Positions 10,419-34,489 of a DNA stretch of 64,000 nt are shown here, in pieces; within the stretch, counting starts at the first letter, position 1, and each line of letters begins with the position of its first letter. The translations under genes and the position numbers were made by a program. The DNA is from Candidatus Enterousia sp. (GTDB lineage Bacteria; Pseudomonadota; Alphaproteobacteria; Rs-D84): contig JAZQCF010000004.1 in NCBI GenBank assembly GCA_045546075.1, positions 21,157 to 85,156 on the forward strand, given 5' to 3'. The notes beneath the pieces were generated by a model, which was given only the letters and a program-made list of their open reading frames with translations, ran no database searches and had not been told where the DNA came from.

Positions 10419-10446
10419 TTTTCATCCTTTTTGTTAGTTTTTTTGT

Positions 10447-11007: not shown

Positions 11008-11087
11008 TTTCTTTCTCTCTTTTTTATGATTTTATCAAATAAACAATTTTGATTCAAGCGTCGATTTATGATAAAATGATTTTATAA

Positions 11088-19430: not shown

Positions 19431-21131
19431 TTATGAACTTAATGTTCCGTTTTTAGCTTTCTCTACCAAATTTTCTACAAATACTTTTATCTTGCTTTGA
19501 TCGTGATACGTATAGTTGTCACTTATATCCCTTTTTAATTGTTCTATATCATCCTTGGACATATTTGCTGTATTTTCAGAAAAAGATTTTGTTGGGTCGC
19601 AATTTTCTTTGTGCGGCATTATATCATCTGGTTCTAAGATGTCTTCAAAAACACACCTTTGGGGTAAAATGTTCAATATATCTTTAACAGAAAACAAATT
19701 AGTGCATTCAATTCCTAATTCTTTAGCAACTTCTTGAATTTGTTTTTTTATTTTATTTCCACCAGTATCTTCATCGTGTATAACCGTTAAATTAAGGTTG
19801 TCTATCGATGAATATCTGTACATTTTTGGCATTTCAGAACCGTTACAACTTTGAATGAAAATATCCCTTATGTTCATGCTTTCTAGAACTTTATTTAATA
19901 TAATTTTATCCGTGTTACCTTCAACTAATACTATGTATTGTGGCAAAAGTTCTTTCCAATAATTTAATCCGAAACCGACTCTCATAACTTCATCACTCAA
20001 TATATACGAGTCTGATTTTGCTCGTTCAATCGTTGTTTTACCTTTCTTTTTAGAAACTACAATATGACTTTCAGGGGTTGTCTTATCTATCATAAAAGGC
20101 GAATGAGTGGCGCATATGATAACATTGTTTTTACTCATACCAATAAGACGATCCCTTAAAAATTGGATTCCACTAGGATGTAAATGAACATCCGGTTCGT
20201 CTAATAAAATAATACTGTTTTCAATATCTTTTGTGGCTTCCTCACAAGATACAGATAATATAAACGAAATAAATTGTCTAAAGCCATCGCTTCTATCTTT
20301 TGTATCAAATAATATACTCTCACGGTCTTTGTCTTCAATCAAACACGTACAAATACCAGTCTGTTCTATATCAATATTTATTTTTACATTAGCCTCGAAA
20401 GATTTCCAAACGGCTTTAAAATGTTTATTAATTGCCGACTCTAATTGTCTGCTTATAGTTTTTCGATTGCTAGCATCTTTCAAATCACCCAAGTTATAAA
20501 TATCTAACTTTGCCAACTTAAAAATATTTTCTATTGGTTTGTTTTTTAACGTTTTATTTATTATTTGATTCAAATCAATTGATGATGGCAACAAAAATTC
20601 TTCACTATAATCCCAATATATAATTTTGGGTTTATTTGGGGCTATAACTTCGTTCCACAAGAAATTATCATGTTCATCTTTTATTTGTTCTAATGTTGTA
20701 TCACCGGTATACCAAGTACTATTAAGATAATATCTATTATTTTTGATACCAGTTGACGACAACTCAAAATTATATATTATGTGCTTGATATCATCAAATT
20801 TTTTTATACTGAGCCCCTTTTGTTCGGCAAATATTTGAGATTTTTCTTGTAATAATTTATTAGTAGCTTTATCTATTTCAAAATATATTTTGACTTCTAC
20901 AATATTATCTTCTGCATTATTAACATTCGGCTTATACATGGTTTTTGTATACTTAAGTTCTGATGAGTATACATTGTTGATAGCCTGTAAAATTGAACTT
21001 TTCCCAGATTCGTTCAAGCCGATAAGAAGATTAAACGCTCGTTCTGATTTATCTTTGTTTTGATAAAATCTATCAATAGTTAAATTTTCTATACTTCTAA
21101 AATTATGAATAGTAATTTTTTCTAATTTCAT
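19431..21131 (-). CDS. OLD-family ATP-dependent endonuclease (ABC-type ATPase + C-terminal TOPRIM)
   Basis: Walker A LIGLNESGKSSIL. Walker B/H-loop LLDEPDVHLHP. TOPRIM motif YIVLVEGNTDKIIL. Start at MKLEKITIHNFRSI (ATG 21131, RBS AAGAGG). The AT-rich composition differs from the flanking chromosome. Confidence 0.75.
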   Translation of the reverse strand: MKLEKITIHNFRSIENLTIDRFYQNKDKSERAFNLLIGLNESGKSSILQAINNVYSSELKYTKTMYKPNVNNAEDNIVEVKIYFEIDKATNKLLQEKSQIFAEQKGLSIKKFDDIKHIIYNFELSSTGIKNNRYYLNSTWYTGDTTLEQIKDEHDNFLWNEVIAPNKPKIIYWDYSEEFLLPSSIDLNQIINKTLKNKPIENIFKLAKLDIYNLGDLKDASNRKTISRQLESAINKHFKAVWKSFEANVKINIDIEQTGICTCLIEDKDRESILFDTKDRSDGFRQFISFILSVSCEEATKDIENSIILLDEPDVHLHPSGIQFLRDRLIGMSKNNVIICATHSPFMIDKTTPESHIVVSKKKGKTTIERAKSDSYILSDEVMRVGFGLNYWKELLPQYIVLVEGNTDKIILNKVLESMNIRDIFIQSCNGSEMPKMYRYSSIDNLNLTVIHDEDTGGNKIKKQIQEVAKELGIECTNLFSVKDILNILPQRCVFEDILEPDDIMPHKENCDPTKSFSENTANMSKDDIEQLKRDISDNYTYHDQSKIKVFVENLVEKAKNGTLSS

Positions 21132-21317
21132 TTGTGACCTCTTATTATCATGTAACATAATATTTTTTGCCTAAAAAATCCAGTTTTTTATTGGTAAATT
21201 GAAATAGTTATATATTTTTTCACAAAATCAAAAAAATTTTTCAAGGCAGGTGGTCGCAACAATGTATATTATTAAGAATAAGGGTATTCCTTATTCGTTA
21301 AACATAAGGAGTATACT

Positions 21318-22583
21318 ATGCTTTTAACAATTGTTGATAAAAACATTAATCAAATTAAACCGTACCAAAACAACCCCAAACTTCATAGCAAACACCAGAT
21401 TAAACAGATTGCGGATTCTATTAAAGAATTTGGATTTGTGAACCCTGTGTTGTTGGATGAAAATGGGGAAATCATAGCGGGGCATGGACGATATTTGGCT
21501 GCAAAACAGTTAAATATTGGAACCATCCCTACAATAACACTATCTCATTTAAATGATGAGCAGAAACGTCTGTATCGTATTGCTGATAACAAACTGACCG
21601 AATTAGGCAAATGGGATGTGTCTTTGTTGCAAATGGAATTTAAAGAACTGGAAAATTTAAATCTGGATCTAGAAATTACAGGGTTTGAAACCGAAGAAAT
21701 AGATAATTTTATTATAAATAAGTCTGGTCCTACAAATCCGAAAGACGAATATATCCCAGAATTATCAACCAACGATTATCAATGCAAATTTGGCGATATA
21801 TGGCGACTGGGGCGACATTTCTTAATTTGTGGTGATGCATTAAAAGCGGAAACATATGCAAATTTAATGGAAAACAATCGTGCCAAAATGATTTTAACAG
21901 ATCCACCATATAATGTCCGTGTAAAAGATATTGGTTCAAGCGGTAAAATTAAGCATGATGAATTTGCGATGGCATCTGGCGAGATGTCATCTGATGAATT
22001 CATCACGTTTTTAAATACATTTATGAAACATGCAAAAGAATATTCCATCGATGGTTCTTTGCATTACTTGTTTATGGATTGGCGACATGGAATAGAAATT
22101 GGCCTGGCCGCATCAACCGTTTATGAAGAATTAAAAAACATCTGCGTTTGGGTCAAAAATAATGGTGGTATGGGCAGCCTGTATCGTTCACAGCACGAAT
22201 TGTGCTTTATATACAAAAACGGCAACGGCCCACATACGAATAATATAAATCTGGGGGCGCATGGGCGATATCGCACAAATGTTTGGGAATACGCAGGTGC
22301 CAATGGTTCCGCAGATGGTAAAGAAAATTTAAAATTACATCCAACGGTTAAGCCCGTTGCAATGTTAAAAGATGCAATTCTGGATGTCACAAAACGTGGC
22401 GATATTGTGTTGGATTGCTTCTTGGGTTCTGGTTCAACCTTAATCGCATGCGAACAAACAGGTCGCACATGTTATGGCATCGAAATAGAACCAAAATATT
22501 GTGATGTGACAATTAAACGTTATGAAGAACTAACCGGTGAAAAAGCCATAAAAATAGGAGGTGCAGATGACAGGATATGCTAA
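21318..22583 (+). CDS. ParB-like nuclease domain fused to a DNA methyltransferase (N6-adenine/N4-cytosine, DPPY)
   Basis: N-terminal ParB/Srx-like region (NPVLLDENGEIIAGHGR), then ILTDPPYNV and a C-terminal SAM-binding region. This architecture is common in phage and GTA regions next to terminase. Confidence 0.8.
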   Translation: MLLTIVDKNINQIKPYQNNPKLHSKHQIKQIADSIKEFGFVNPVLLDENGEIIAGHGRYLAAKQLNIGTIPTITLSHLNDEQKRLYRIADNKLTELGKWDVSLLQMEFKELENLNLDLEITGFETEEIDNFIINKSGPTNPKDEYIPELSTNDYQCKFGDIWRLGRHFLICGDALKAETYANLMENNRAKMILTDPPYNVRVKDIGSSGKIKHDEFAMASGEMSSDEFITFLNTFMKHAKEYSIDGSLHYLFMDWRHGIEIGLAASTVYEELKNICVWVKNNGGMGSLYRSQHELCFIYKNGNGPHTNNINLGAHGRYRTNVWEYAGANGSADGKENLKLHPTVKPVAMLKDAILDVTKRGDIVLDCFLGSGSTLIACEQTGRTCYGIEIEPKYCDVTIKRYEELTGEKAIKIGGADDRIC

Positions 22584-22941
22584 CCCACCAAAAGAAACAC
22601 AATTCAAAAAAGGACAATCTGGTAATCCCAAAGGACGTCCCAAGGACGATAAAAATTATTTGGCTCTTGCAAACAGAGAGTTATCACAAAAGGTTTCAAT
22701 TATGGAAAAAGGTCGACGTAAAACACTTAGCAAAAAGGAGGTGTTTGTCAAAACGACGATAAACAAGGGTATTGCTGGCGATAAAAAATTTACAAATATT
22801 GCATATATAATGATGCAGGATGCCGAAAGATATAATGAACGCAAAAAACACGATGAAAAAGAACAATCTAAAATAAACCAGAACATTATTGAAAATTTCC
22901 GAAAACGGGTTTTAGAAGAGAATAAAGAGGTGGAAGAATGA
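22561..22941 (+). CDS. phage-associated small basic protein (DUF5681-like, putative terminase small subunit)
   Basis: FKKGQSGNPKGRPKD motif, found in small proteins encoded immediately upstream of phage/GTA large terminases. Overlaps the neighbouring genes. Confidence 0.45.
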   Translation: MQMTGYANPPKETQFKKGQSGNPKGRPKDDKNYLALANRELSQKVSIMEKGRRKTLSKKEVFVKTTINKGIAGDKKFTNIAYIMMQDAERYNERKKHDEKEQSKINQNIIENFRKRVLEENKEVEE

Positions 22942-24383
22942 CACAAAATCTGGCTAATGCTTTAATAAAGGAAGATTTTTACAGTTTTGTGCAACGGGCT
23001 TATTTCGAAACAAGCGGTGGACAAATACTGATTCCAAATTGGCACATTGAAATATTGTGTGATCGGCTGGAAAAAGCCCGCAAAGGCGAAATAAAACGTC
23101 TTATTATAAATGTTCCGCCACGCAGTTTAAAATCACAAATTGTAAATGTTGCATTTACCGCTTGGGTATTAGGTCATAATCCAACAGAAAAAATTGTTAG
23201 TGCATCGTATTCTGCAGAATTAGCGGAAACTTTTGCACGCGATTGCAAACGTATTATGCAATCTGAGTGGTATAAACAACTATTTCCAAAAAGTGAGATT
23301 TCAAATGACCAATCGTCAGCCTATGATTTTAAAACAATTTCACGCGGTGGACGCTTTGCCGCATCCGTTGAAGGATCTTTAACGGGTCGCGGCGGCAATA
23401 TAATAATCATCGACGACCCGATAAAAACAACAGATATGGCAAATGAGAATGCCCTAAATAAAGTACAAGAATGGTATACAGGTACACTGTTAAGCCGTTT
23501 AGATAATCAAGAAGACGGGGTGATTATTTTGATAATGCAACGTGTTCATGAAAACGATTTAACAGGTTATCTGTTAGATAAAGAGTCTGATAAATGGGAG
23601 CATATAGTTATGCCTATGATTGCAACCGAAGAAGAACAATGGGAAGTTAAGAATAAAACTTTTATAAGGCATAAAGGCGATGTATTAAACAAGCAATATA
23701 TCAGTTTTGAAAAATGTAACGAATTAAAAACAGAATTAGGGGAATATGTATGGAATGCTCAGTATCAACAGGAGCCATGCCCAATCAGTGGTGGTATAGT
23801 CAAAGAAGAATGGATGCAATATTATCCAAACCAACGTTTGAATCCTGATGAAGTTTATAAAATATTATTAAGTTGGGATACAGCTAATAAAACAGGAGAA
23901 AACAATGCGTATTCTGCTTGTTCTGTCGTAGCAGTAATGAGAAACAGGACATTTTATTTGTTACAAGTTGCGCGTGCCCGACTGGATATGACAAAACTTT
24001 TAGAATCTGTTTTGCAAGCATACAATTCTGTGGTTCAAGAGTCTGGCTTTTTCAGAATCAAACCAGTATTACTAATAGAAGATGCTGCGAGCGGAACTCC
24101 GCTTATAAATTTGTTAAGAAATTTAAAAGATATATATGGCCGCGTATTAAATATCGAGGCAATAAAGCCTAAAGGGGATAAAATTGACCGACTTTATGGT
24201 ATAACACCATATATTGAAAATGGACAATTGTTGTTTCCGCCAGATGGTGTGGAAGGGAAAGAACGATGGTGGCCAGATTTTAAAAAAGAATTGTTAAGCT
24301 TTCCAAATTCAAAATATAAAGATCAAGTTGATTCTTTGACACAGGCTATTTCATATGGTCAAGAATTATTGGCATACCAATAA
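22938..24383 (+). CDS. phage terminase large subunit
   Basis: INVPPRSLKSQIVNVAFTAWVLGHNP (Walker A-like of Terminase_6 type), IIIIDDPIK (Walker B), and a C-terminal RNase-H-like nuclease region. Confidence 0.8.
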   Translation: MTQNLANALIKEDFYSFVQRAYFETSGGQILIPNWHIEILCDRLEKARKGEIKRLIINVPPRSLKSQIVNVAFTAWVLGHNPTEKIVSASYSAELAETFARDCKRIMQSEWYKQLFPKSEISNDQSSAYDFKTISRGGRFAASVEGSLTGRGGNIIIIDDPIKTTDMANENALNKVQEWYTGTLLSRLDNQEDGVIILIMQRVHENDLTGYLLDKESDKWEHIVMPMIATEEEQWEVKNKTFIRHKGDVLNKQYISFEKCNELKTELGEYVWNAQYQQEPCPISGGIVKEEWMQYYPNQRLNPDEVYKILLSWDTANKTGENNAYSACSVVAVMRNRTFYLLQVARARLDMTKLLESVLQAYNSVVQESGFFRIKPVLLIEDAASGTPLINLLRNLKDIYGRVLNIEAIKPKGDKIDRLYGITPYIENGQLLFPPDGVEGKERWWPDFKKELLSFPNSKYKDQVDSLTQAISYGQELLAYQ

Positions 24384-24410
24384 AATAAATACTGGGTAAA
24401 ATCTCGGTAT

Positions 24411-25049
24411 TTATTTTGGCATATGTTTATGTATACATGCGTTATGCAAATCACTAATCAAATTCTTGCCAGTATAAGATTTGGCGAACCGTTTAAATTT
24501 GTCTATTTGTTTAATAAAATCATCACATGATATAAAATATGAATAATCATGTTTAGAAAAAGCATCAAATACAATCATATTTATTTCTTTGTTGTGCTTT
24601 TTTATCCACTTATATACTGTTTCAAAATCTACATATAAAAACATATGATTTGTGGCCGCGCCGTGTATTTCGCGTATTGATAGAAAACCACTAAAAATCC
24701 TGGTTTTATCTGCTAGTTTTATTTGTGGAACAATATTTACATTTTTCATGTATAAAAAACTGTCATTTTTACAATCTGGCAATTTCATAATACTCGTATC
24801 GTTTTTACCAGGCGGACAAATATAAATAGGTATCAGTATTTTTGATCGCAACAACGTCGCTATGAAATATGCCAAACTTTCATTATCTTTGAACACGTTA
24901 TATTCTGCTAATGCACTGGCCAATGTCCCATTAAAATAATCGGTATCATTCTCTTGGTGAATAATACAGTAATCAAATTCATATTCGAAATCTTTAAAAT
25001 GGTTCTCGTCCAATACATATTCTGTTAAAGTTTTTCGTATGTTTGTCAT
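24411..25049 (-). CDS. hypothetical protein (island operon gene 4)
   Basis: AT-rich ORF, last gene of the minus-strand run 26703 to 24411. Confidence 0.45.
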   Translation of the reverse strand: MTNIRKTLTEYVLDENHFKDFEYEFDYCIIHQENDTDYFNGTLASALAEYNVFKDNESLAYFIATLLRSKILIPIYICPPGKNDTSIMKLPDCKNDSFLYMKNVNIVPQIKLADKTRIFSGFLSIREIHGAATNHMFLYVDFETVYKWIKKHNKEINMIVFDAFSKHDYSYFISCDDFIKQIDKFKRFAKSYTGKNLISDLHNACIHKHMPK

Positions 25050-25050
25050 A

Positions 25051-25548
25051 TTATTTTTCCAAATCTATGCCGCATTCTGTATAGCACTTTTTCCAATCAA
25101 ATCGTGCTGATTTATATTTTTTGTTTAATTTTGCATTTTCTTCTTTGGTAATCCATGCGGTTTTCAAATTATTCAAAACATATTTAACACTTTTATCATC
25201 ATCCATAAAAGCATGAAATAATTCAGATAACGGCACACAGTGTTCCAATATTAAATCTTTCAATTTCGGGAAATCTTTTTGAATTGTGCGTTTTTTGCCG
25301 ACCAACAAATTATGTAAATCCCCATTTATACCAGATTTGCACCAAATATTTTGCGCCGATACCGATATAAAATCTGCCGGTCTCGATTCAGAAATCACAT
25401 ACAATATATTGCGAAATGATAATTTTATAATTTTCTTTGCGTTATCACTTGCTTTACGATATGTGTCACGCAGATTATTCAATAATAAATCTGTATCTTT
25501 ATCAGTAAATTTATTCGTCGGTTTGCTTATTGTTATTTGTGGTTTCAT
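25051..25548 (-). CDS. hypothetical protein (island operon gene 3)
   Basis: ORF. 1-nt gap to the downstream gene and 38-nt overlap with the upstream gene, suggesting translational coupling. Confidence 0.45.
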   Translation of the reverse strand: MKPQITISKPTNKFTDKDTDLLLNNLRDTYRKASDNAKKIIKLSFRNILYVISESRPADFISVSAQNIWCKSGINGDLHNLLVGKKRTIQKDFPKLKDLILEHCVPLSELFHAFMDDDKSVKYVLNNLKTAWITKEENAKLNKKYKSARFDWKKCYTECGIDLEK

Positions 25549-26023
25549 TGTTCTCTGCCGCTTGTTTTTCTTTCCATTTTTTATATTCTGGATTTGGAAT
25601 CTGGGATTCTATCATCTTTAACTTTCGAATAGTTTTCTTTGTGCCTATCGTATTGTAATAAGTATAAGTTCCGTCTAATACCATACAATATGCCCCAAAT
25701 GTAACCGTATATCCATCATACAATTTTTTTGATTCTGTTTTCCAGTCTTTTTCGCCTATAACCTGTCGCATATCGGTTGCAAAAACTTCGCCACCAAACA
25801 TCTGTTGCCGTCGTGCCTTGCATGAACGTGCCACATCTGTGTCGCCATCTGCCGGATGACAATAATATAATTGAATCAAAGAATACTTGTCATTCACTTG
25901 AAATACTTTTAATTCATGACTTGGAAAGCAATCTGGATTGCGTATGGTTTTTGGAGGAACCGGTTGTGTTGTCAAACCAACACAAGAACACAATAACAAA
26001 CCTAATAAAATTACTTTCTTCAT
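25511..26023 (-). CDS. lipoprotein, hypothetical (island operon gene 2)
   Basis: MKKVILLGLLLCSCVG lipobox. Confidence 0.5.
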   Translation of the reverse strand: MKKVILLGLLLCSCVGLTTQPVPPKTIRNPDCFPSHELKVFQVNDKYSLIQLYYCHPADGDTDVARSCKARRQQMFGGEVFATDMRQVIGEKDWKTESKKLYDGYTVTFGAYCMVLDGTYTYYNTIGTKKTIRKLKMIESQIPNPEYKKWKEKQAAENNETTNNNKQTDE

Positions 26024-26025
26024 AT

Positions 26026-26703
26026 TTAATCCTTTTTGTTTTTGGGTGGAATTTCTATAAACAATGATTTGAACTGTCCGTATTTATCACCAGTATCGCA
26101 AAAATCTTGCCATTGAAAATTATAGGCATTTTGCATAAACAAATCTGGTTTATCTTTAAGATGTTTGGAATTGGTGTCATTTTTTACATTCCACTTATGC
26201 CATCCAGACATTTTTTCGCCTTCGGTTGTCCTGAATGCATATGCCATAGAATTTGGGTTGCTTTTTGCACACCAAAACGATTTGTTGTTCGAAATAAAAA
26301 TGCATACGCCTGATTTTGCGTATCCTTTATCAATTAACCATTCAATGCGGTTTATATCTGCCCATACATGATAACAATTATCATCATTTCCCTTATGATC
26401 CGCCAACAGGTCTGATACAGGTATTTTTGTATTTTCGTAAAGTTTTTCTGATTTTATTGGTCTGGTTTTATATTTCAATTCTATGGGGTAAAAATCTCCG
26501 TCTTTGATGACCATTATATCTATGTGAATAATGCGTTGTTCGCCTGGCTTTTTAATTGGAAATTCCAAAATTATTTGAGCCGTATCATTGAATATCTTGT
26601 GTAATTCTATTGCTAATGAATGTTGAAAATCTGCTTCCGAGACAAAGAACCTTTGTCTACTTATGCTAGAAAACGCTTCTTTAATTCCGCTGATTACATT
26701 CAT
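26026..26703 (-). CDS. PD-(D/E)xK nuclease-fold protein (island operon gene 1)
   Basis: RIIHIDIMVIKDGDFYPIELKYK gives a D ... E-x-K motif with the surrounding beta-strand pattern. Confidence 0.45.
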   Translation of the reverse strand: MNVISGIKEAFSSISRQRFFVSEADFQHSLAIELHKIFNDTAQIILEFPIKKPGEQRIIHIDIMVIKDGDFYPIELKYKTRPIKSEKLYENTKIPVSDLLADHKGNDDNCYHVWADINRIEWLIDKGYAKSGVCIFISNNKSFWCAKSNPNSMAYAFRTTEGEKMSGWHKWNVKNDTNSKHLKDKPDLFMQNAYNFQWQDFCDTGDKYGQFKSLFIEIPPKNKKD

Positions 26704-26994
26704 CTTTATCCCCGCGTAAAATGCTGACCGCCAATTAAGAATTGGCGGCCGGGGAGTTCCTAATCAGTTTATCATTGATTCCGTGGCTTTCGGGTTGCCC
26801 CTATTGTATGGCACACGACTCCCCGACCATAACGTCAGGGACATTACGGTGCAAAAAGCACCGAAACATCAGTAATAACGATGCTTTCGCACCGGATAAA
26901 CGGGCTAGGAAAGCCCCGAACCCAACTCTCATTGGATTCATCAAAAACATACCTTAAAACAATATAAAAATCAAGTTATTATAAAAGAATAAAA
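26704..26994 (-). other. GC-rich, highly structured non-coding element between two minus-strand genes; candidate ncRNA or leader
   Basis: Contrasts with the AT-rich island. Hairpins seen: CCGCCAATT-AAG-AATTGGCGG, GTGC-AAAAA-GCAC, and CATC-AGTAATAAC-GATG nested in CGAAA/CTTTCG. A long-range pair CGGGGAGT / ACTCCCCG is present. Confidence 0.35.
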
Positions 26995-28437
26995 CTAACA
27001 TTTTGTATATTTCACATGTTTATAAGAAGAACGCCTTTGAATAAAATTATGTATATATTTATCAATTTTTTCCTCTGGTATAAGATATATCTCCATCATT
27101 AGCTCCTTTATAAAAGCACCAGCTAATATACCATAGACGTTTTGTAATATTAATTCATTATTTGCTAGTGCATAGTATTTGCCATTGTTTTTGTTATATG
27201 CTTTCGGATGTACTATTGCATTACGTATTTGACACAAAGCATTACCCAGATTTTTATCTTGTTTTTGCAAATACTTCAACATGCGTTTTATTTTTGTTTT
27301 CCACTGGGTTGATAAACTTTCTAAAACGAAACTATTAACATCTCCGTTTTTAGATTTTCCGCGTAAATTTTGTAATGTTTCAACATAAGAAATCAACATC
27401 ACATAATCTTTTTGATTAATTAGTGATTGACCACCATGCAAAATATCTTCTGCCCCTGTAATCAAATTATGCCAACCAGGTTTATCGTAAAGACGCAACC
27501 ATTTGTTGATAGATATTGTTAATAAATTATCATCTTTATTTATCAAAAAATCTTTTATGGTTATTGGCATCAAATCGTGTGCTAATTTTCCATGTTTATG
27601 CCCAAGAGAAGGGAGCAAATCTCTACAAAGCATAGGGTGTGCTTCATGATATATTTTATTATTTTTGTTATGTTTTACAACACTAATCCAGCTAAAATTT
27701 ATGTTTATTTTACAATCTAATAAAATTTCTAAAAATAAGCGCAATTTGTGTTCGAGCATTCTATAAATAGAGAATTTATTATAACCAGATTTTATATGAA
27801 TAGCGATATTCGTATGAAGACGTTTTAATAAGTTATATTTGTTTTTATCTAAGAGTGGTTGTATATGCTTTTTAAATGAATTCATAATAGTCTTAGATTT
27901 TGCTGAAAAAGAACAAATTACATCATCAAAATCATCAGCAGAGTGAATAGTGTGAGCGGTTGCGTTCACTATTTCAAGCGAGATTTTTGTTTTACCTATT
28001 ACAACCGGCATTTGTGCAAATTTCACCATAGAACTAATGTTTTTATTTGTAGATAAAAATTGATAGAAATTATCGTCATAATCTACATATAAACCACTTA
28101 TCACAAAATTTTTCAGCAACCCTCCGAAAACAACTGCTCGTGCTGAGCCAGTAACAAATTCTGAGAAAACAATATTCATCGTTATGCCTGAGCATTGTAA
28201 AAATACTTCTAACAATGTAATAGGTATAGTTTGTTCATCATAACGAATGATGCCATGCATTACGAGTATAGATTTATTAGTCGGGTGTTTTGAATTAGTA
28301 TTAAATATTGAAATTTTAATACCATTCTCTGGAGAATAACTCAATTTACCAGAAAATTCCTTGTCCGGTTTATTCGGCATCCAAAAAGTGCCTATCCATT
28401 CATAATTTTTACGATGATCTAAATCCAAAGTCGCCAT
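26995..28437 (-). CDS. hypothetical 480-aa protein with a C-terminal HEPN-like Rx4H motif (possible abortive-infection-type RNase)
   Basis: NALCQIRNAIVHPK fits HEPN R-x4-H. Lies between a restriction endonuclease and a nuclease operon in an acquired island. Domain assignment was not verified. Confidence 0.45.
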   Translation of the reverse strand: MATLDLDHRKNYEWIGTFWMPNKPDKEFSGKLSYSPENGIKISIFNTNSKHPTNKSILVMHGIIRYDEQTIPITLLEVFLQCSGITMNIVFSEFVTGSARAVVFGGLLKNFVISGLYVDYDDNFYQFLSTNKNISSMVKFAQMPVVIGKTKISLEIVNATAHTIHSADDFDDVICSFSAKSKTIMNSFKKHIQPLLDKNKYNLLKRLHTNIAIHIKSGYNKFSIYRMLEHKLRLFLEILLDCKININFSWISVVKHNKNNKIYHEAHPMLCRDLLPSLGHKHGKLAHDLMPITIKDFLINKDDNLLTISINKWLRLYDKPGWHNLITGAEDILHGGQSLINQKDYVMLISYVETLQNLRGKSKNGDVNSFVLESLSTQWKTKIKRMLKYLQKQDKNLGNALCQIRNAIVHPKAYNKNNGKYYALANNELILQNVYGILAGAFIKELMMEIYLIPEEKIDKYIHNFIQRRSSYKHVKYTKC

Positions 28438-28449
28438 ATTTTTTAATAA

Positions 28450-28992
28450 CTATTTATCAGTTGGAACCGGTAACCCAAATTTCTGTAACGGTATATATTC
28501 AAAATAATAAGAACAGCCGACCGAAACTATATAATCTAAGACATCTTGATAGCATGGTTGTTTGAACCAGTCACTTAGCAAATAAATATATTCTACTTCC
28601 ATATTCAGTTGAGCCAGTAATTTCTTATATTGTTTTTTCTTAAAATCACAAGTTTGCAATTTTTCGTCTACTGACCCAGCAACACGTTGAAATTTGCATT
28701 CAATTACAAAAAATGTGTTGTTTATAACAACATAAATAGAATCATCTGGTAATAATTTCTTAGATAATATCGATTTCCAATCAATCCCACGGTATTCTAA
28801 AAATTTATATAAAGCAGATTTTTTGAATATAGAGGCAACTTCTTCGCCTTTATATAAAACAGAAACCCACCCGCGTCTATCATCTTTGCAATCATATCCT
28901 GGTTGAGAACACAAAAAAGTGCGTAAATCGGTCTTCCCTTCAAAAACTAAACCGGTTTTAGTATTTGCACCACCAATTCCATTCGCTTTCAT
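28450..28992 (-). CDS. putative type II restriction endonuclease (PD-(D/E)xK)
   Basis: LLPDDSIYVVINNTFFVIECKFQ gives PD ... E-C-K. Immediately downstream of two DNA methyltransferases on the same strand with overlapping stop/start. Confidence 0.5.
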   Translation of the reverse strand: MKANGIGGANTKTGLVFEGKTDLRTFLCSQPGYDCKDDRRGWVSVLYKGEEVASIFKKSALYKFLEYRGIDWKSILSKKLLPDDSIYVVINNTFFVIECKFQRVAGSVDEKLQTCDFKKKQYKKLLAQLNMEVEYIYLLSDWFKQPCYQDVLDYIVSVGCSYYFEYIPLQKFGLPVPTDK

Positions 28993-29774
28993 TTTTTATC
29001 CTTTTTTTCAGATATATCATATAATCTTTTTTCAGCCAATTCAACAAATTGTGGCTCTTGGTCTATACCCACAAACAGACGGCCATGTTTTAATGCTGCA
29101 ACACCTGTCGTTCCGCTACCCATAAATGGATCTAAAATCAAATCGCCAGCATTTGTAGATGCCAAAATAATGCGTTCCAATAATTCCACCGGTTTTTGAG
29201 TTGGGTGTTTGCCAAATTTCTTTTCTTCCTTGGTCGGGGTTCCGATAGCCCAAACGCTTCGCATCTGGCAACCTGGCTTTTTGATAAAGTCCTTTGGGAA
29301 ATCACCGTTCTTCATAGCCTCATAATTAAATGTATGTTTCGCCTTTTTATTTTTGCGCGCCCAGAGCAGTGTTTCATGACTTGCTGTAAAGTACCGACAG
29401 GACATATTCGGACTAGCATTTGGCTTAAACCAAGTTATGTCGTTCAAAATATGGAAACCAAGCAATTGCATAGCAAAACCGCATGAATATATGCTATGGT
29501 ATGTACCACTAACCCACAAAGTGCCATTGGGTTTCAACACACGATGACAAGCACAGAGCCATTTTTTATGAAATTCAAAATCATCACTAAGACCATGAGA
29601 TTTGTCCCAATCGCCTTTGTTCACAGACACAACGCAACCATTTTGACATGTGATACCACCATTAGAAAGCATGTACGGCGGGTCTGCAAATATCATATCA
29701 AATGTATTTTCCGGAAGTTCAAGCAACTTTTCAAGGCAATCTGCACAATAAAGACGGTACTGTTTCTTAGTCAT
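28989..29774 (-). CDS. beta-class N6-adenine DNA methyltransferase (DpnA/MboIB-like)
   Basis: N-terminal FADPPY (motif IV), then a C-terminal HPTQKP...DPFMGSGTT (motif I). This is beta-class order. Confidence 0.8.
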   Translation of the reverse strand: MTKKQYRLYCADCLEKLLELPENTFDMIFADPPYMLSNGGITCQNGCVVSVNKGDWDKSHGLSDDFEFHKKWLCACHRVLKPNGTLWVSGTYHSIYSCGFAMQLLGFHILNDITWFKPNASPNMSCRYFTASHETLLWARKNKKAKHTFNYEAMKNGDFPKDFIKKPGCQMRSVWAIGTPTKEEKKFGKHPTQKPVELLERIILASTNAGDLILDPFMGSGTTGVAALKHGRLFVGIDQEPQFVELAEKRLYDISEKKDKK

Positions 29775-30699
29775 AATTTGTAATCAATAATTCACGAATT
29801 GCATCACGACCATCGGCCTTAGAATTTATAAGACGTTTAGCCAAAATACGGTTAATTTTATAATCTTTGTACAAATCATCAAAGAACGAGTCATCAATAT
29901 AATTGGTTGGATCCGAATTACTCAACATTTGTAAAGTGCCCATCTGATGACATGTGTCAAAGACCTGTTTAAGACGTTCTTGTTCTGCATCATCAAAATC
30001 ACCAACTGCATAAGAATTAAAAGATGACGTTTCACGAATTGGACGATATGGGGGGTCATAATAAATGAATGTGTCGGCCTTTACATAATCTGGTGTAGCA
30101 CCAAAGTCTGCTTGTATAATCGTAGCAATTTGCAAAGCTTCAGACACGTTGCGTAAGTTTTCTTCATCCAAGATACGCGGGTTGGTATATTTGCCCATTG
30201 GAACATTGAATTTGTTTTTGCTGTTTACACGGAACAAACCGTTAAAGCATGTCCGGTTCAAGAATATCGTTAGGGCAGCACGGCGAACAAAACTTGTGCG
30301 GTATACATTGGCATCAACATTTTTATCACAGTCGTTATATTCATCGCGTCTAGCATAATAATATGCTTTTGTGTCATCTGTATGTCTGTATTCGGTTTGA
30401 ATTTTGGTCAGTTCAACAATCAAACTTTCCACATCGCGTTTTATAACGTTGTAAAGAATCACCAATTCTGGGTTGATATCGAATAAAAATGCTTCCTGGA
30501 TTTGATATCTATTGTATATATCAAAAAAGACGGCACCACCACCAACGAAAGGTTCTATATAACGTTTGATGCCGCCCATCTTTAGTTTTAGTGGAAGTTT
30601 TTGTTCAATTTGTTCCAGCAACTGTCCCTTGCCACCGGCCCACTTCAATATCGGGTGGCATTCTGTATAATCTGGCAATCTGGCTGGTATTGCTATCAA
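29767..30699 (-). CDS. Dam-family (alpha-class) N6-adenine DNA methyltransferase
   Basis: KWAGGKGQLL, EPFVGGGAVFFD (FxGxG) and YYDPPYRP, in the order typical of Dam/DpnM. Confidence 0.8.
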   Translation of the reverse strand: MIAIPARLPDYTECHPILKWAGGKGQLLEQIEQKLPLKLKMGGIKRYIEPFVGGGAVFFDIYNRYQIQEAFLFDINPELVILYNVIKRDVESLIVELTKIQTEYRHTDDTKAYYYARRDEYNDCDKNVDANVYRTSFVRRAALTIFLNRTCFNGLFRVNSKNKFNVPMGKYTNPRILDEENLRNVSEALQIATIIQADFGATPDYVKADTFIYYDPPYRPIRETSSFNSYAVGDFDDAEQERLKQVFDTCHQMGTLQMLSNSDPTNYIDDSFFDDLYKDYKINRILAKRLINSKADGRDAIRELLITNYD

Positions 30700-30757
30700 A
30701 ACTCATCCTTTCCTTGCTACTATATTAGAAGAAAATAGCAGATAAAATCAAGGTGTT

Positions 30758-30985
30758 TTATAATATTTTACGTGGTGCGTTTTTCCACAATGCTGCCATT
30801 TGAAATAGTTTGCGCTGGATGCGTCGAAGTAGCCATGCTTGGCGACAAGTTAAATTGCCATCATTGGTTCTGCGGATTGCGGCTTCTAATTCCTTTAATG
30901 ACCGACATGCCGCGAAATAGAGCATAATAAAATCTGTTTTGTTACTGGGGTTGATATCATCAAAATGCTTATACTTCATAGACAA
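30758..30985 (-). CDS. small hypothetical protein
   Basis: 75-aa ORF at the head of the minus-strand methylase/restriction gene train. Could be a regulator. Confidence 0.3.
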   Translation of the reverse strand: MSMKYKHFDDINPSNKTDFIMLYFAACRSLKELEAAIRRTNDGNLTCRQAWLLRRIQRKLFQMAALWKNAPRKIL

Positions 30986-31110
30986 TCCTTTTTAAGGTTG
31001 TCGTATTGATGATTATATTCCCGCGAAAGTCCAGTCATTTTATTATCTTTATTAACTTGACTTCTGGCTGCTTTAGAGCGGTAATTGCGTGACGTTATAA
31101 AGGAGCCGAT

Positions 31111-31551
31111 ATGTCATATAAAGACAACCTGCCTAAGACGATGGATGAGTTAAAAGCACTATCTTTTGATGAACGAGCGCGATTATGGGCAAAATACTCA
31201 CAATATCCATTCAAACGGCAAATGCGGTCGCTTTGGTATTACATTCAATGTGACAGGTTAAATCTTCGAATTGAACATAAATATTTGGTAAAAATTCAAA
31301 AATATAAGGATAATCCAGAACAGTGTTTAGACCATGCGTGCCCAAACAAATACAACTTTGTCCCAGGTACAATTTTAACAAGATATTTCAAAGGGATAAA
31401 ATACACCATCTTAGTCAACGACGACGGTAGTTTTTCTTATAATGGCGATAAATATTCAACTTTATCGGCGATAGCAACCAAGATAGCAGGTATGAAAATG
31501 TCTGGTAATTTCTTCTTTGGAATAAACAAAAGGTATAAACATGACAATTAG
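31111..31551 (+). CDS. DUF2924-family protein (serine-recombinase accessory protein)
   Basis: GTILTRYFKGIKYTILVNDDGSFSYNGDKYSTLSAIATKIAGMKMSGNFFFGI matches the conserved DUF2924 C-terminal block. Sits immediately 5' of the recombinase as in known pairs. Confidence 0.6.
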   Translation: MSYKDNLPKTMDELKALSFDERARLWAKYSQYPFKRQMRSLWYYIQCDRLNLRIEHKYLVKIQKYKDNPEQCLDHACPNKYNFVPGTILTRYFKGIKYTILVNDDGSFSYNGDKYSTLSAIATKIAGMKMSGNFFFGINKRYKHDN

Positions 31552-33162
31552 GTGTGCTATTTATACCCGTAAATCAACCGAACATGGATTGGAACAGGAG
31601 TTTAATTCTCTGCAAAACCAAGAAGAGTCGTGCAAGGCATATATAGCATCACAATCGTTTAATGGTTGGCAATACTATAAGACTTACAGTGATGCGGCGA
31701 TTTCTGGCGGAACTATGGAACGACCGGCATTAAAGCAAATGCTGGATGATATGGCACATGGGTTAGTAAATACTGTGGTGGTATACAAGGTTGATCGATT
31801 ATCGCGTTCAATCTTAGATTTTCACAATATGATGAAATATTTTGAAAAATACGGTGCCAATTTTGTGTCTATTACCCAGTCATTTGATACCAGTACATCT
31901 ATGGGTAAATTGACATTAAATATGCTACTATCATTCGCACAGTTCGAACGTGAAGTATCAAGTGAACGTGTGCGTGATAAAATCCGTGCATCAAAGGCTA
32001 AGGGGTTATGGATGGGTGGTGCCCCACGTTTGGGGTATGATCTAATTAATAAAAAGTTGGTAGTAAGCCCAACCGAAGCAGAACAAGTCCGACACCTGTT
32101 TGAAAAATATCTGGAACTGCAATCTGTGAATGATTTAACTGAATACGCACGGCAAAATGGTATGTTTGGCAAACGATGGGAGACCGCAAAACGGCAAATT
32201 CGTGGTGGAAACCCCATATCTAAAATGAGCATGCATCGCATTCTGCGGGATAAAGTTTACATCGGTCAAATCGAAAACAAAAAAGAAGGTACTTTTGCCA
32301 AAGGTGAACACGAACCGATTATATCAAACGATTTGTTTAATCGTGTCCAAGTTGCGTTGGCTAATAACACAAACAACAAATCCCAAAGCACACATGCGTC
32401 GAATATATTGACCGGAAAATTATTTAATCACAATGGCACAAAGTTCATCAACCAAATGACCAGCGGTAAAGGCAAAAGAAAAATTCATTACTATGCAACC
32501 AAGGGATTTTATTTGACTGCCGCGTGTGTGGATGAGATTGTTATAAAAACAATAACCAATTTTCTGAACAGTGATATGTCTGATCTGCCCATCAATTTGG
32601 CCACCGCGTATTAAAACGAATTGATGTAACAAATATGAATTTCGCAGAAAAACGCAACCTAATTCAATCATTGGTTGAAAAAATTGTGTATTCGCAAGAA
32701 CAACTGATTTATACACTGACTATAGATGCGCAAAAATTACAGCCGTTTATCAAGGAGCATTATGTAAATCAAAATGTTGAGCCCATGGAATATATAATTG
32801 GCGACAACAGCATAACAATCACGGAAAAAGTATTCTTACGCAAATACGTCAACACGGTATACGACCGTGGTAAAAACGGTGTATTAAATGTCACCGACAA
32901 TAATCATTTAATTTTGAAAGCATTTGCAACGGCATGGAAATATAGGGAATTATACGAACAAGATGGCAATGTAGACAATGTGATACGTTCTGTTCGCACA
33001 TCACCAAGATTATTTTATAAATATTTATCTCTCTCGTATCTGAGTCCGTCAATCGTAAATAAACTATTAAGTGGCAAAATTAATATGGCAGTTAGAGATA
33101 TTTTGGATAAAGCATCAAGAAGTGATGACTTTGAGTATCAAGTCAAACTGTTTAATCTATAA
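31541..33162 (+). pseudogene. large serine recombinase interrupted by a stop/frameshift; ORF 31541..32614 carries the resolvase and recombinase domains, ORF 32635..33162 the C-terminal part
   Basis: N-terminal IYTRKST (catalytic Ser) and VYKVDRLSRS. The second ORF begins with KRNLIQSLVEKIVY, the conserved C-terminal helix motif of large serine recombinases. The two ORFs are in different frames, 20 bp apart. Confidence 0.5.
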
Positions 33163-33367
33163 ACACATTGATTTTTTATCTGTTTTATGTTATATTGTGT
33201 ATATGCCTGTTGGAAGGCTAGCCCGTTCGTGTAAAGATTTCATCATCCAACAAATAAAATAATATAAACCTCCGAGCTTATTATCTAAGCCAAGAGACTA
33301 CGAACGCAAAATCAATATTAGATAATGAACTTGGGCAACTCCGCAAATGCGGTAAAGGATTTATATT

Positions 33368-34048: not shown

Positions 34049-34331
34049 ATTTGCATCTTATTCTCGCAGTACGTCAAAAACATATACTAATGCCAATGGA
34101 TATAGAGTGTACAAAGATTCAGGGCAGCTAGTTCATCGTCATATGGCAGAAATAAAACTTGGTAGACCTTTACAATCTGGTGAAGTTGTGCATCATATAA
34201 ACCGAAACAAACAAGACAATCGTCCATCAAATTTGTATGTGTTCCATGACCAACAAGCACATTGGGCGGCTCATAAACAGGACGCCCAAAATTATGGCAA
34301 AGATTATAGTTTTAAAGGTAAAAATCATTAA
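34014..34331 (+). CDS. HNH endonuclease
   Basis: HRHMAEIKLGR...VVHHINRNKQDNRPSNL is an HNH motif. Confidence 0.65.
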   Translation: MMRKEVMKMRNKFASYSRSTSKTYTNANGYRVYKDSGQLVHRHMAEIKLGRPLQSGEVVHHINRNKQDNRPSNLYVFHDQQAHWAAHKQDAQNYGKDYSFKGKNH

Positions 34332-34440
34332 AAGTGCCTCAACGAAAATAGCCAAAGTATATCAATGCTTGCTATTTGGGCTAGTTTGATAAATTTGGCG
34401 ATATACATTGGAAATATCGTGGGTAAAAATCGCCAGAAAT

Positions 34441-34489
34441 GGGGCGAAAAAAACATCCCGTGGGATTACCACGGGATGTTCAATATTAC
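34441..34489 (-). terminator. terminator hairpin downstream of tRNA-Ser
   Basis: Minus strand AACATCCCGTGG-TAAT-CCCACGGGATGTT followed by TTTTTT. Confidence 0.45.

Follow-up and report, generated by a model that had tools for sequence, protein, structure and literature searches.

The GC-rich segment upstream of a four-gene operon in Candidatus Enterousia is one copy of a conserved, multi-copy leader-RNA family, and the genes that follow it are a mosaic of four independently mobile genes led by a PD-(D/E)xK nuclease-like protein. The 3′ half of the leader appears, from covariance searches run in both directions, to be a divergent, sub-threshold relative of sRNA-Xcc1 (RF02221). Two strongly covarying long-range pairings, which are new, connect the core junction and the P3 loop with, respectively, the loop of a 5′ hairpin and the segment just 3′ of that hairpin. 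We propose that the leader is probably a default-off RNA gate, made of competing pairings, that controls the downstream cargo.

A structured leader upstream of four genes

The operon lies on the minus strand of the window (the whole 64,000-nt stretch of DNA that we analysed). Its genes are as tightly packed as the initial annotation had read from the sequence: g1 and g2 lie 2 nt apart, g2 and g3 overlap by 38 nt, and g3 and g4 lie 1 nt apart. The ORFs are:

26026 to 26703, minus strand: g1, ORF of 225 aa
25511 to 26023, minus strand: g2, ORF of 170 aa
25051 to 25548, minus strand: g3, ORF of 165 aa
24411 to 25049, minus strand: g4, ORF of 212 aa

The segment upstream of g1 spans 26704–26994 (291 nt), and the contrast in base composition and hairpin content first noticed there is real. 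The structured part is 51% G+C, against 27–33% in flanking 500-nt windows, and the minus-strand RNA folds at −106.8 kcal/mol compared with −76.5 ± 4.7 kcal/mol for shuffled sequences (z = −6.4; 0 of 200 shuffles as good). Its hairpins include CCGCCAATT/AATTGGCGG at 26748–26728, and a long-range pairing joins GGTCGGGGAG (26828–26819) to CTCCCCGGCC (26756–26747). We infer that the segment comprises a promoter and the 5′ leader of the operon, with promoter use and RNA ends predicted from sequence. Its parts in this copy (copy 1) are:

26946 to 26974, minus strand: promoter-like site, read from sequence; −35 TTGATT (26974–26969), 17-nt spacer, −10 TATGTT (26951–26946)
26918 to 26939, minus strand: P0 hairpin, GAAUCCAAU-GAGA-GUUGGGUUC, the predicted RNA 5′ end
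26902 to 26917, minus strand: L hairpin, GGGGCU-UUCCUA-GCCC; loop UUCCUA (26911–26906) complements junction J
26895 to 26901, minus strand: K segment, GUUUAUC, which complements the P3 loop
26834 to 26840, minus strand: strand a, CCCUGAC; pairs locally with strand b in a hairpin that competes with the b:c stem
26740 to 26828, minus strand: Xcc1-like three-way-junction core, from the RF02221 match and covariation
26828–26819, minus strand: strand b, GGUCGGGGAG, part of the core
within the core, minus strand: P2, interrupted by internal loop AUACAAUAG/GAAAG and capped at its tip by GCAA
26780–26762, minus strand: P3 hairpin, loop GAUAAAC (26773–26767)
26762–26757, minus strand: junction J, UAGGAA
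26756–26747, minus strand: strand c, CUCCCCGGCC
26726 to 26750, minus strand: terminator-type hairpin, GGCCGCCAAUU-CUU-AAUUGGCGGUC, its first four bases being the last four of strand c
26709 to 26713, minus strand: ribosome-binding site (RBS), GGGGA, 5 nt upstream of the g1 ATG and complementary to strand c

Each copy has the same layout of promoter-like site, structured RNA of ~240 nt, terminator-type hairpin and G-rich RBS. The promoter-like site of copy 1 stops 6 nt upstream of the first hairpin; other copies carry a TTGATT/TTGCAA-17-TAnnnT arrangement 5–7 nt upstream of GAAUCC, and a consensus promoter scan missed copy 1 and called copy 3 (TTGCAA-17-TATAAT). RNAalifold pairs P0 (50–59 with 64–74 in A2) with some compensatory changes, and distant copies show P0 variants such as GAACCCAGU/ACUGUGUUC. 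The terminator-type stem covaries as well (CCGUCAA/UUGACGG, CCACCA/UGGUGG, CUCCUAU/AUAGGGG). It is followed in copy 1 by a weak U run (UCAGCAUUUUA), for which the terminator scan made no call, and in copies 2 and 3 by a U run, with the hairpin called as a terminator. The g1 start codon lies ~25 nt downstream of this hairpin.

The leader recurs and covaries

Searches with nhmmer placed the element at ~24 Enterousia loci and at two sites in the window. A covariance model, R1, built only from Enterousia-type copies, found three window copies and 40 matches across all loci searched. The two other copies in the window are:

34676 to 34935, plus strand: leader copy 2, beside tRNA-Ser (nhmmer E 2.5e-9; R1 93 bits)
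59616 to 59829, minus strand: leader copy 3, divergent (R1 39.8 bits, E 5e-8; promoter and terminator both called)

Copy 2, with its terminator called at 34889–34912, precedes a 319-aa ORF that has a hydrophobic N-terminus and no Pfam match. Copy 3 precedes a 75-aa HTH protein (59388–59615; HTH_19 E 2.3e-5, under Pfam's cut-off). The suggestion of a non-coding RNA dedicated to the g1–g4 operon thus fails, since two of the three window copies stand ahead of unrelated genes.

Among 34 distinct copies, 94.5% of cells are paired, with compensatory change at 21 of the 27 pairs, a result that none of 500 shuffles equalled and that compares with 29–50% for slid controls. This covariation maintains a three-way junction of P1, P2 (with the AUACAAUA loop and a capped tip) and P3, and it bears out the earlier view of the segment as a structured RNA on the gene strand rather than spacer DNA. 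Every copy stops 10–25 nt upstream of a same-strand start codon, and a separate downstream promoter therefore has no room.

Kinship with sRNA-Xcc1

An Rfam covariance search, which the initial annotation had proposed as a check, related the segment to a known RNA at a sub-threshold score: RF02221 matched over its full length (model positions 1–87) at 41.4 bits (E 5.6e-5), under the gathering cut-off of 53 bits, and a gathering-threshold Rfam scan of the segment gave no match. The link is reciprocal, as R1 finds the genuine Xcc1 copy of phage Aaphi23 (37 bits, E 4e-6) at a site that Rfam scores at 86 bits. R1 gave no match at E < 0.01 to the Xcc1 copy of the Stx phage.

The two RNAs share one three-way junction, in the order closing stem, P2 (with its internal loop, and its tip capped by a tetraloop), GAA, P3 and a junction of 6–7 nt, and both have the L:J and K:P3 pairings described below. 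They also share a mobile-element location directly upstream of a same-strand gene, which holds for copy 1. sRNA-Xcc1 lies ahead of symE in Xanthomonas integron cassettes (bioRxiv 10.1101/2025.06.18.660453) and ahead of an ORF6N protein gene in APSE (10.1101/2020.03.17.996009), and phage Xcc1 copies precede antirepressor or antiterminator genes. In the records and literature examined, its settings are integron cassettes, prophages, phage genomes and genomic islands.

The Enterousia form differs in several respects. Its P2 tip is flipped (GGG-GCAA-CCC for CCC-GAAA-GGG), and its core sits inside the ~240-nt leader, which adds a P0 hairpin as well as hairpins immediately 5′ (a:b) and immediately 3′ (intrinsic terminator) of the core. 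RBS masking would involve strand c rather than the P3 loop. Its host is an uncultured gut alphaproteobacterium with several copies per genome. The comparison shows the 87-nt family model to cover no more than the 3′ half of a larger unit, and it extends the family to uncultured gut Alphaproteobacteria, where several copies per genome serve as leaders of accessory and envelope genes. The papers found on sRNA-Xcc1 establish no mechanism and describe only predicted targets or a virulence role; the comparison turns this function-unknown RNA into a concrete model testable by compensatory mutations.

Two long-range pairings and a set of exclusive helices

The L loop and J can form 5–9 contiguous Watson–Crick pairs in all 18 of 18 copies (mean 6.5, compared with 3.4 for non-cognate combinations; permutation test, 0 of 20,000). 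For K and the P3 loop, 21 of 22 copies allow a run of six or more contiguous pairs (mean 7.8, compared with 4.0 for non-cognate combinations; permutation test, 0 of 20,000). For J, cognate and non-cognate partners separated when the test was restricted to the hairpin loop; duplex energies of J against the whole 150-nt upstream region (−5.4 cognate, −4.8 kcal/mol non-cognate) showed no separation. Both pairings are kept in six genuine phage Xcc1 loci, in all six of which the P3 loop also complements a repeat of K that abuts the RBS.

The leader also has mutually exclusive helices that connect the conserved domain to the terminator or to the RBS. The a:b core pairs (columns 23–29 with 40–46) are each standard in 29–34 of 34 distinct copies, and rest on few independent changes because strand b is nearly invariant. 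Strands a, b and c co-vary in locus L026b and in window copy 3, whose a, b, c and RBS differ from those of copy 1 with complementarity kept. The a:b hairpin together with an extended terminator is 91% paired, and each of the three window copies has the a:b state as its minimum free energy fold, with the Xcc1 fold 2–10 kcal/mol higher.

Strand c complements the RBS in a duplex of −12.3 kcal/mol in copy 1, and averages −9.3 kcal/mol over 34 copies compared with −5.2 ± 3.5 kcal/mol for 152 other ORF starts. The two change together, as in copy 2 (CGCCCC/GGGGCG), copy 3 (CCUCCA/UGGAGG) and locus L111 (AACUCCCC/GGGGAGUU), although GGGG-rich RBSs could reflect gene preference rather than a pairing partner. 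Exposed elements, or an adjacent strand, thus also complement the ribosome-binding region of the next gene. Two further candidate contacts were rejected. Mimicry of the g1 RBS by the P3 loop of copy 1 (GAUAAA in both) fails because close relatives retain the RBS and differ in the P3 loop, and pairing of the L-hairpin GGGG with strand c, seen in the copy 1 minimum free energy fold, is not general because phage members lack it.

A candidate default-off gate and its rivals

In the gate that we favour, the RNA is bipartite, and its 5′ ‘key’ (the L loop and K) pairs with the ‘lock’ that J and the P3 loop provide in the core. Strand c, next to the lock, has three options: pairing with strand b to close the Xcc1 fold, pairing at the base of the terminator-type hairpin, or pairing with the G-rich RBS. 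Strand b can alternatively be sequestered by the upstream strand a. Closed by default, the gate would keep transcription from reading through into the downstream cargo, whatever that is, and keep the cargo from being translated. It would open when the Xcc1 fold, with b:c formed and key and lock docked, beats the a:b hairpin. Here we infer transcription from the predicted promoter, the identity of the ‘on’ fold and the switching trigger. As copy 1 lacks a proper U run, control at this operon may be translational only, or absent. If key and lock always act in cis, the change of state would have no evident trigger, which counts against the gate.

Such gating would work by RNA–RNA competition, as in the c4 RNA of P1/P7 and the IsrK RNA of Gifsy-1. 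In the a1b1/a′b′/a2b2 scheme that Citron and Schuster are said to have described in 1990 (work cited in PMC8201110), exposed elements of the c4 RNA complement an upstream sequence and a downstream sequence overlapping the RBS, both within one and the same transcript. A c4-type dual complementarity is present here too: in phages between the P3 loop and both K and its RBS-proximal repeat, and in Enterousia copies between strand c and both b and the RBS. Like c4 (RF01695, immI), the Enterousia RNA is small and structured and would derive from the 5′ end of an operon under its own control, and c4 likewise lies ahead of antirepressor genes and has specificity sequences that vary among elements. However, neither sequence nor fold is alike, Xcc1 stands outside the C4 clan, and the Stx phage carries C4, IsrK and Xcc1 as separate elements; c4 action has been shown experimentally, whereas that of the Enterousia leader is proposed here.

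IsrK (RF01394, Salmonella Gifsy-1) is likewise a prophage leader with a promoter and with short terminated and read-through isoforms, and it gates a toxic product. In its read-through transcript a long-range pairing of the 5′ part with a segment further downstream keeps translation silent and an alternative fold is active, and its short isoform acts in trans (PMC4825925). Its sequence and fold differ from those of the Enterousia leader, in which key and lock have no clear terminator between them. With attenuators and riboswitch platforms the leader shares promoter-proximal exclusive helices (a:b as anti-antiterminator, b:c as antiterminator, then a terminator) and an upstream strand that masks the RBS; it differs in that its input appears to be RNA–RNA pairing rather than a ligand, a leader peptide or a tRNA.

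The element might instead serve chiefly to encode a small RNA that acts in trans, which is the current annotation of sRNA-Xcc1. It would then be a c4-like immunity or antisense RNA that contacts other transcripts through its exposed P3 loop and junction, with the cargo expressed only by leaky read-through. We judge this unlikely, though deserving of weight. Northern blots from Xanthomonas show sRNA-Xcc1 accumulating as a discrete 88-nt species (PMC2996969), which fits a trans-acting RNA equally well as a leader. The element has a promoter-like site and a terminator-type hairpin of its own, the phage RNA precedes antirepressor genes as c4 does, and the variable yet matched L/J and K/P3 sequences, which differ between paralogues in one genome, resemble specificity determinants. 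Yet in every copy the exposed loops find their complementary partners in the same transcript, and there is no space for a promoter belonging to the downstream gene. The trans-acting and gate readings are also compatible: c4 and IsrK each combine cis with trans action.

We hold out less hope for a riboswitch, in which the Xcc1-like core would be an aptamer for a small molecule or protein and the bound ligand would stabilize the b:c stem, preventing termination or RBS masking. The order of promoter, conserved three-way junction, terminator and RBS would suit it, as would the mutually exclusive structures and an unpaired internal loop, AUAMAAYAG/GAAAR, that is conserved or near-invariant among copies. 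The downstream genes have no metabolic theme in common, however, the Rfam search matched no known riboswitch family, and the covarying long-range pairings supply a mechanism that needs no ligand.

A more ambitious extension of the gate, which we regard as a long shot, is that Xcc1-type leaders form a portable, self-addressed lock-and-key module, each copy with its own matched key and lock. Mobile elements of gamma-, beta- and alphaproteobacteria would then couple the module to cargo that is toxic or is useful only under some conditions (nucleases, antirepressors and SymE, for example), and several copies could coexist in one cell without cross-talk. In Enterousia, opening would require transcription of the element or of a phage to shift the balance of short to long leader RNA, making g1 an infection- or induction-triggered nuclease.

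The cargo is interchangeable

g1 contains the stretch HIDIMV...PIELKYK on which the initial annotation based its PD-(D/E)xK assignment, and the motif is upheld: E...D...ExK (E23, D62, E75-x-K77) is invariant in 23 sequences. Among these homologues, down to 25% identity, the invariant residues are S22, E23, D25, Q27, E47, D62, E75 and K77. The AlphaFold model (pLDDT 90.7) has PD-(D/E)xK nucleases (Cas4, Hjc, MGME1, HincII, OkrAI) as its best Foldseek matches, all at only E ≥ 0.01. Relatives of g1 number 261 across 185,579 species genomes; g1 is the commonest cargo downstream of the leader and is also present without the leader RNA in other genomes.

The other three genes are more obscure. g2 is a putative lipoprotein on the strength of a lipoprotein-type signal predicted by eye at its N-terminus (MKKVILLGLLLCSCVG / MKKVILLGLLLCSC); it has no significant family, its single PADLOC match being sub-threshold and at chance level (E 0.003), and related lipoproteins flank g1, before or after it, at three loci (L020, L027 and L028). 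g3 homologues form only nine clusters, all from gut metagenomes, of which the sole named one is from Alphaproteobacteria; elsewhere g3 is partnered with an ADP-ribosylglycohydrolase in the absence of g1, g2 and g4. g4 has faint SseB-like similarity (Pfam SseB E 0.02, under the cut-off), and its model (pLDDT 78.7) has hypothetical protein TTHA0547 as its sole fold match; elsewhere it lies, without g1, downstream of a GIY-YIG nuclease or a 188-aa protein. Searches of g1–g4 against PADLOC, Pfam, NCBIfam and PHROGs gave nothing above noise for any of the four, with zero PADLOC-DB 2.0 HMM matches for g1, g3 and g4 and no significant defence match.

The four-gene cargo occupies a variable slot adjoining the terminase gene of an integrated element. 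This island lies at tRNA-Ser and carries a serine recombinase as well as the terminase; it also encodes an OLD-family ATPase, an ApeA-like HEPN protein, a restriction–modification set and a ParB-methylase. These neighbours, the intact nuclease motifs of g1 and the presence of a GIY-YIG nuclease and an ADP-ribosylglycohydrolase in related slots would favour a single uncharacterized anti-phage system with a dedicated non-coding RNA, the ‘defence module’ of the initial annotation. Gene-neighbourhood data largely refute that reading, and we consider it very improbable. The genes occur together only in relatives at least 84% identical, among which identity per gene ranges from 67% to 99%, a variation between close relatives that indicates recombination at the locus. 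Outside those relatives, g1, g3 and g4 each stand alone or with different partners, so that the four genes are not co-conserved, the very finding named beforehand as evidence against a module. The leader RNA, for its part, also heads unrelated operons that encode glycosyltransferases, an epimerase, lipoproteins, an HTH protein, a GIY-YIG nuclease and an ADP-ribosylglycohydrolase. What is conserved here is the RNA and the chromosomal slot, with the genes interchangeable; tight packing downstream of a structured RNA does not make a system.

A retron had already been discounted for want of a reverse transcriptase, and rightly: none of ten neighbouring proteins has a Pfam RT match, and there are no tandem repeats. 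A ToxIN-like type III toxin–antitoxin repeat array is absent from the leader, with only three trivial 8-nt repeats found, all intragenic.

Orientation and strand of the element

That the segment is a DNA-level element (an attachment site, mobile-element end or miniature repeat) rather than an RNA is scarcely credible: it is repeated within the genome, one copy adjoins tRNA-Ser at the island border and copies 1 and 2 are inversely oriented, but compensatory changes preserve RNA pairs, orientation always matches the downstream gene, copy 2 is on the far side of the tRNA and so not in the island, copies are merely ~65% alike, and the gene strand folds better than the opposite one (plus strand, z = −3.8). 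Many of the preserved pairs are G-U, possible only on the gene strand (A-C on the other); columns 41:137 of the closing stem, for example, are U-G in 13 of 34 copies. We also rejected an invertible segment bounded by the inverted copies 1 and 2, which flank the recombinase, as the copies are too dissimilar and other genomes are arranged differently. A metagenome scan with GGTCGGGGAG-N55-85-CTCCCCGRCCG returned mostly tRNA genes, whose acceptor-stem ends match the pattern, and about 10 true copies among 130 loci; we treat the resemblance of the leader motif to tRNA ends as chance.

A leader RNA related to sRNA-Xcc1

The 291 nt between g1, the first of four packed minus-strand genes (g1 to g4), and the gene upstream contain both the 9-bp stem and the long-range GGUCGGGGAG/CUCCCCGGCC pairing pointed out in the initial annotation. 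The GC-rich, hairpin-dense segment that it described is confirmed: the structured part is 51% G+C, and folding compared with shuffles gave z = -6.4 on the gene strand and z = -3.8 on the opposite strand. The one meaningful Rfam match was sRNA-Xcc1 (26740-26827, minus strand; E 5.6e-5), a full-length resemblance which, at 41.4 bits, lies below the 53-bit cut-off, so membership by threshold fails. The whole 291 nt was matched by nhmmer in about 24 Enterousia loci and at a second site in the window. R1, a covariance model of the leader 3' domain, gave 40 matches over the loci examined, with none in g1 loci of other phyla or in loci where g1 is followed by a 177-aa protein and g4. R1 also matched the Xcc1 of phage Aaphi23 (37 bits; 86 bits with the Rfam model), which makes the link between the Enterousia leader and Xcc1 reciprocal.

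Leader RNA copies in the window
R1 26709-26856, minus strand: copy 1, 125 bits; gene behind, g1
R1 34786-34928 (leader 34676-34935), plus strand: copy 2, 93 bits; gene behind, 319-aa ORF with hydrophobic N-terminus
R1 59626-59760 (leader 59616-59829), minus strand: copy 3, 40 bits; gene behind, 75-aa HTH protein

Across 34 distinct copies, the fold and the next hairpin are 94.5% paired, with two-sided changes at 21 of 27 pairs; none of 500 shuffles was as good, slid controls reached 29-50%, and frequent G-U pairs fix the RNA strand. We conclude from the folding scores and this covariation that the segment is a structured RNA rather than spacer, as had been proposed.

Alignments place a putative sigma-70-like promoter (TTGATT or TTGCAA, 17 nt, TAnnnT) ahead of the leader, the -10 element being TATAAT in several copies; a promoter scan called copy 3 and not copy 1. 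A hairpin, P0, comes 5-7 nt 3' of the -10 element, followed by the L hairpin (GGGGCU-loop-AGCCC) and segment K. Variable hairpins and strand a come next, and then the core, an Xcc1-like three-way junction made of strand b, stems P2 and P3, junction J and strand c. The final four bases of c also belong to the base of a post-core hairpin, which is usually followed by a U run; a G-rich ribosome-binding site (RBS) and start codon lie 10-25 nt past this hairpin. The scan called a terminator in copies 2 and 3 and none in copy 1, where the U run is degenerate. The ends of a widespread tRNA gene, taken on its reverse strand, have exactly the sequences of strands b and c (GGUCGGGGAG...CUCCCCGACC; loci L083-L212), and a metagenome pattern scan was swamped as a result; we assumed this resemblance to be coincidence.

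Long-range and competing pairings

The loop of the L hairpin is complementary to J, which lies between P3 and c. In 18/18 copies the two can form 5-9 contiguous Watson-Crick pairs (mean 6.5, compared with 3.4 for non-cognate combinations; 0/20000 permutations), and their sequences vary widely between copies.

L loop and J sequences
Copy 1: L loop UUCCUA, J UAGGAA
Copy 2: L loop UCGAAA, J UUUCGA
Copy 3: L loop CUGAAAA, J UUUUCAG
L001: L loop UCUCAA, J UUGAGA
L119: L loop UAAGAAA, J UUUCUUA

K, immediately 3' of the L hairpin, is complementary to the P3 loop, with at least 6 pairs in 21 of 22 copies (mean 7.8 versus 4.0; 0/20000 permutations). Copies 2 and 3 each carry their own matched L/J and K/P3 sequences. 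The L and P3 stems differ in sequence by lineage and keep their pairing, from which we infer that the long-range contacts are loop-mediated at least part of the time.

Strand b has two alternative partners, strand c, which closes the Xcc1 fold, and the upstream strand a. Core a:b positions form standard pairs in 29-34 of the 34 copies, and the alternative structure, a:b plus an extended terminator, is 91% paired. Where strand b is altered, in copy 3 and in L026b, matching changes are found in both a and c. Strand c can also pair with the RBS: the c:RBS duplex averages -9.3 kcal/mol compared with -5.2 +/- 3.5 at 152 other ORF starts, and the two strands co-vary across copies (c CGCCCC with RBS GGGGCG in copy 2, CCUCCA with UGGAGG in copy 3, and AACUCCCC with GGGGAGUU in locus L111). 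The minimum-energy fold of all three window copies combines the a:b hairpin with the full terminator hairpin, and forcing b:c costs them 2-10 kcal/mol. Because a:b is the minimum-energy state, the leader looks, judged by thermodynamics only, to be default-off by design.

Phage Xcc1 loci carry the same pairings

We compared six phage loci whose Xcc1 is genuine or annotated (Aaphi23; Stx phages P13374, F039 and EH1965; Moraxella Mcat16; Bordetella IFTN1). Both L:J and K:P3 pairings are present in 6/6, with a variant in F039, where CUUCAAAG, from the loop of the 5' hairpin, pairs with the P3 loop instead of J. The phage order is promoter, L hairpin, K, attenuator-like element, Xcc1, RBS and an antirepressor or antiterminator gene. 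The attenuator-like element (AGCGG/CCGC/GCGG-U7), between the 5' hairpin and the Xcc1 core, reads AGCGG-N3-4-CCGC-N11-13-GCGG followed by U7 and can form two mutually exclusive hairpins (L082 2900-2935; L081 2935-2965; L223-L226). All six loci also repeat K right against the RBS or start codon, and this repeat too has complementarity to the P3 loop (junction marked by a slash: CAAACAG/GAG, CAAGUAG/GA, CAGAAAA/AUG, CUUCAAAG/GAGG, CUAAAG/GAGG, AAGCAG/GAG). Enterousia copies have no K repeat at the RBS, P3-loop complementarity there being 3-5 nt only; strand c appears to pair with the RBS in place of the P3 loop.

In Stx phage P13374, a stretch of 1.1 kb (L081 1963-3069) has matches on a single strand to IsrK (62 bits), C4 (77 bits) and sRNA-Xcc1 (80 bits), with an ORF annotated as a regulatory protein between C4 and Xcc1; three leader-RNA types lie in series.

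The best-supported reading of these sequence patterns is that competing RNA-RNA pairings would make the leader an RNA gate. A single element has complementarity to an upstream 'decoy' as well as to the RBS region, this element being the P3 loop in phages and strand c in Enterousia. The c4 RNA of P1/P7 follows the same decoy/RBS logic, and Citron and Schuster are said to have reported in 1990 that it works by such competing complementarity. Its role is in controlling ant (PMC8201110). The competing-pairing logic is also that of IsrK of Gifsy-1, where the read-through transcript is silenced by long-range pairing and a short isoform acts in trans (PMC4825925). A ligand-binding riboswitch is possible because the internal loop of the core is conserved. 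The published work that we found treats sRNA-Xcc1 as a trans-acting sRNA with predicted targets or roles only, and places it upstream of symE or an ORF6N protein (PMC2996969; 10.1101/2025.06.18.660453; 10.1101/2020.03.17.996009; PMC12189769). Within the literature searched, whose coverage was incomplete, we found neither sRNA-Xcc1 as a riboswitch or cis-regulatory element nor a larger sRNA-Xcc1 unit or the L:J and K:P3 pairings.

The genes behind the leader are mosaic cargo

The interest of the locus rests on the leader RNA, not on the g1-g4 proteins. All four ORFs claimed are present at the positions given and are tightly packed: 2 nt separate g1 from g2, g2 and g3 overlap by 38 nt, and 1 nt lies between g3 and g4.

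26026-26703, minus strand: g1, 225 aa
25511-26023, minus strand: g2, 170 aa
25051-25548, minus strand: g3, 165 aa
24411-25049, minus strand: g4, 212 aa

Scans of all four proteins against Pfam, PADLOC, NCBIfam and PHROGs gave no significant match, and hence none to a PADLOC defence family. The E...D...ExK signature of g1 is invariant in 23 homologues, and its predicted structure is confident (pLDDT 90.7), with PD-(D/E)xK nucleases as best PDB matches at E of 0.01 or worse. A search of 185,579 species genomes yielded 261 relatives of g1, spread over several phyla.

By tblastn on 80 loci, the complete set of four was confined to close relatives, whose g1 is at least 86% identical; L009 (g1 89% identical) is truncated after g2. 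Two more distant loci with all four, L221 and L222, have identities to the window of 97/86%, 99%, 84% and 67%, an unevenness that points to a recombination mosaic. Where g1 is about 52% identical, an unrelated 177-aa protein and then g4 follow, a tRNA adjoins and the leader RNA is absent. In further genomes g1 has a g2-like lipoprotein beside it, follows a GIY-YIG protein and a g4 fusion, or is alone; outside this clade, g2-g4 were never beside g1 in the 80 loci. Homologues of g4 without g1 lie behind a GIY-YIG nuclease or a 188-aa protein, and g3 homologues are partnered by an ADP-ribosylglycohydrolase. In the same terminase-adjacent slot of L207 (an IMG/VR contig) and L122, the leader precedes an 82-aa protein and two lipoproteins, and g1 is missing entirely. 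Genes behind copies of the leader encode lipoproteins, GIY-YIG, ADP-ribosylglycohydrolase, an 802-aa protein, GT2 and GT92 glycosyltransferases, an epimerase, a hexapeptide transferase and an HTH protein, besides g1.

The initial annotation had named lack of co-conservation as what would refute it, and g1, g3 and g4 are each found with other partners, which refutes a co-conserved four-gene module. Its structured RNA and PD-(D/E)xK protein stand; its four-gene system with a dedicated ncRNA does not, as the genes are mosaic and the RNA lies ahead of other genes too. We conclude that g1-g4 are ordinary mosaic cargo.

A 174-177-aa family with the motif KLVILLCNPGG...LEYYPYHT and no Pfam match recurs in these cargo operons (L010 8677-9210; L028 about 7040-7560; L026 about 6600-7130), adjoining g1, g4 or an ADP-ribosylglycohydrolase. 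In a Bacillota MAG (L213 5387-6630), a distant homologue of g1 lies at the end of a cluster headed by a ResIII helicase-like protein of 1066 aa and shares 1 nt with a T4 endonuclease IV-like gene.

Island setting

The nearest matches were MAGs of Candidatus Enterousia and related gut Alphaproteobacteria. The locus lies in a low-G+C island (about 30%) from about 19.4 to 34.5 kb (19431-34583) that ends at a tRNA-Ser (34490-34583).

19431-21158 and 26995-30699: defence-type neighbours
21318-24383: ParB-methylase, DUF5681 and large terminase trio (terminase phrog_38, E 7e-102)
31541-32614: serine recombinase, preceded by a phrog_11806 protein
34014-34331: HNH-like ORF

Immediately upstream of the leader RNA is an ApeA-like HEPN protein (ApeA_NTD1, E 1.5e-8; HEPN-type Rx4H motif RNAIVH). 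The island also encodes a PD-(D/E)xK protein (PDDEXK_11), followed by two ORFs methylase-like by sequence, and an OLD-family ATPase-TOPRIM protein (PADLOC Old, E 9e-31). This gene content places the g1-g4 locus, which converges on the terminase gene, within an integrated element and amid its defence-type genes. No portal or capsid gene was seen among the ORF lists of 19431-34583, and the element looks satellite-like or like a prophage remnant. Past the leader slot of L207, at 5277-11490, the corresponding position again holds a defence-type island, with a 794-aa HATPase_c_3/HATPase_c protein, a C5 methylase and DUF488 and DuOB proteins.
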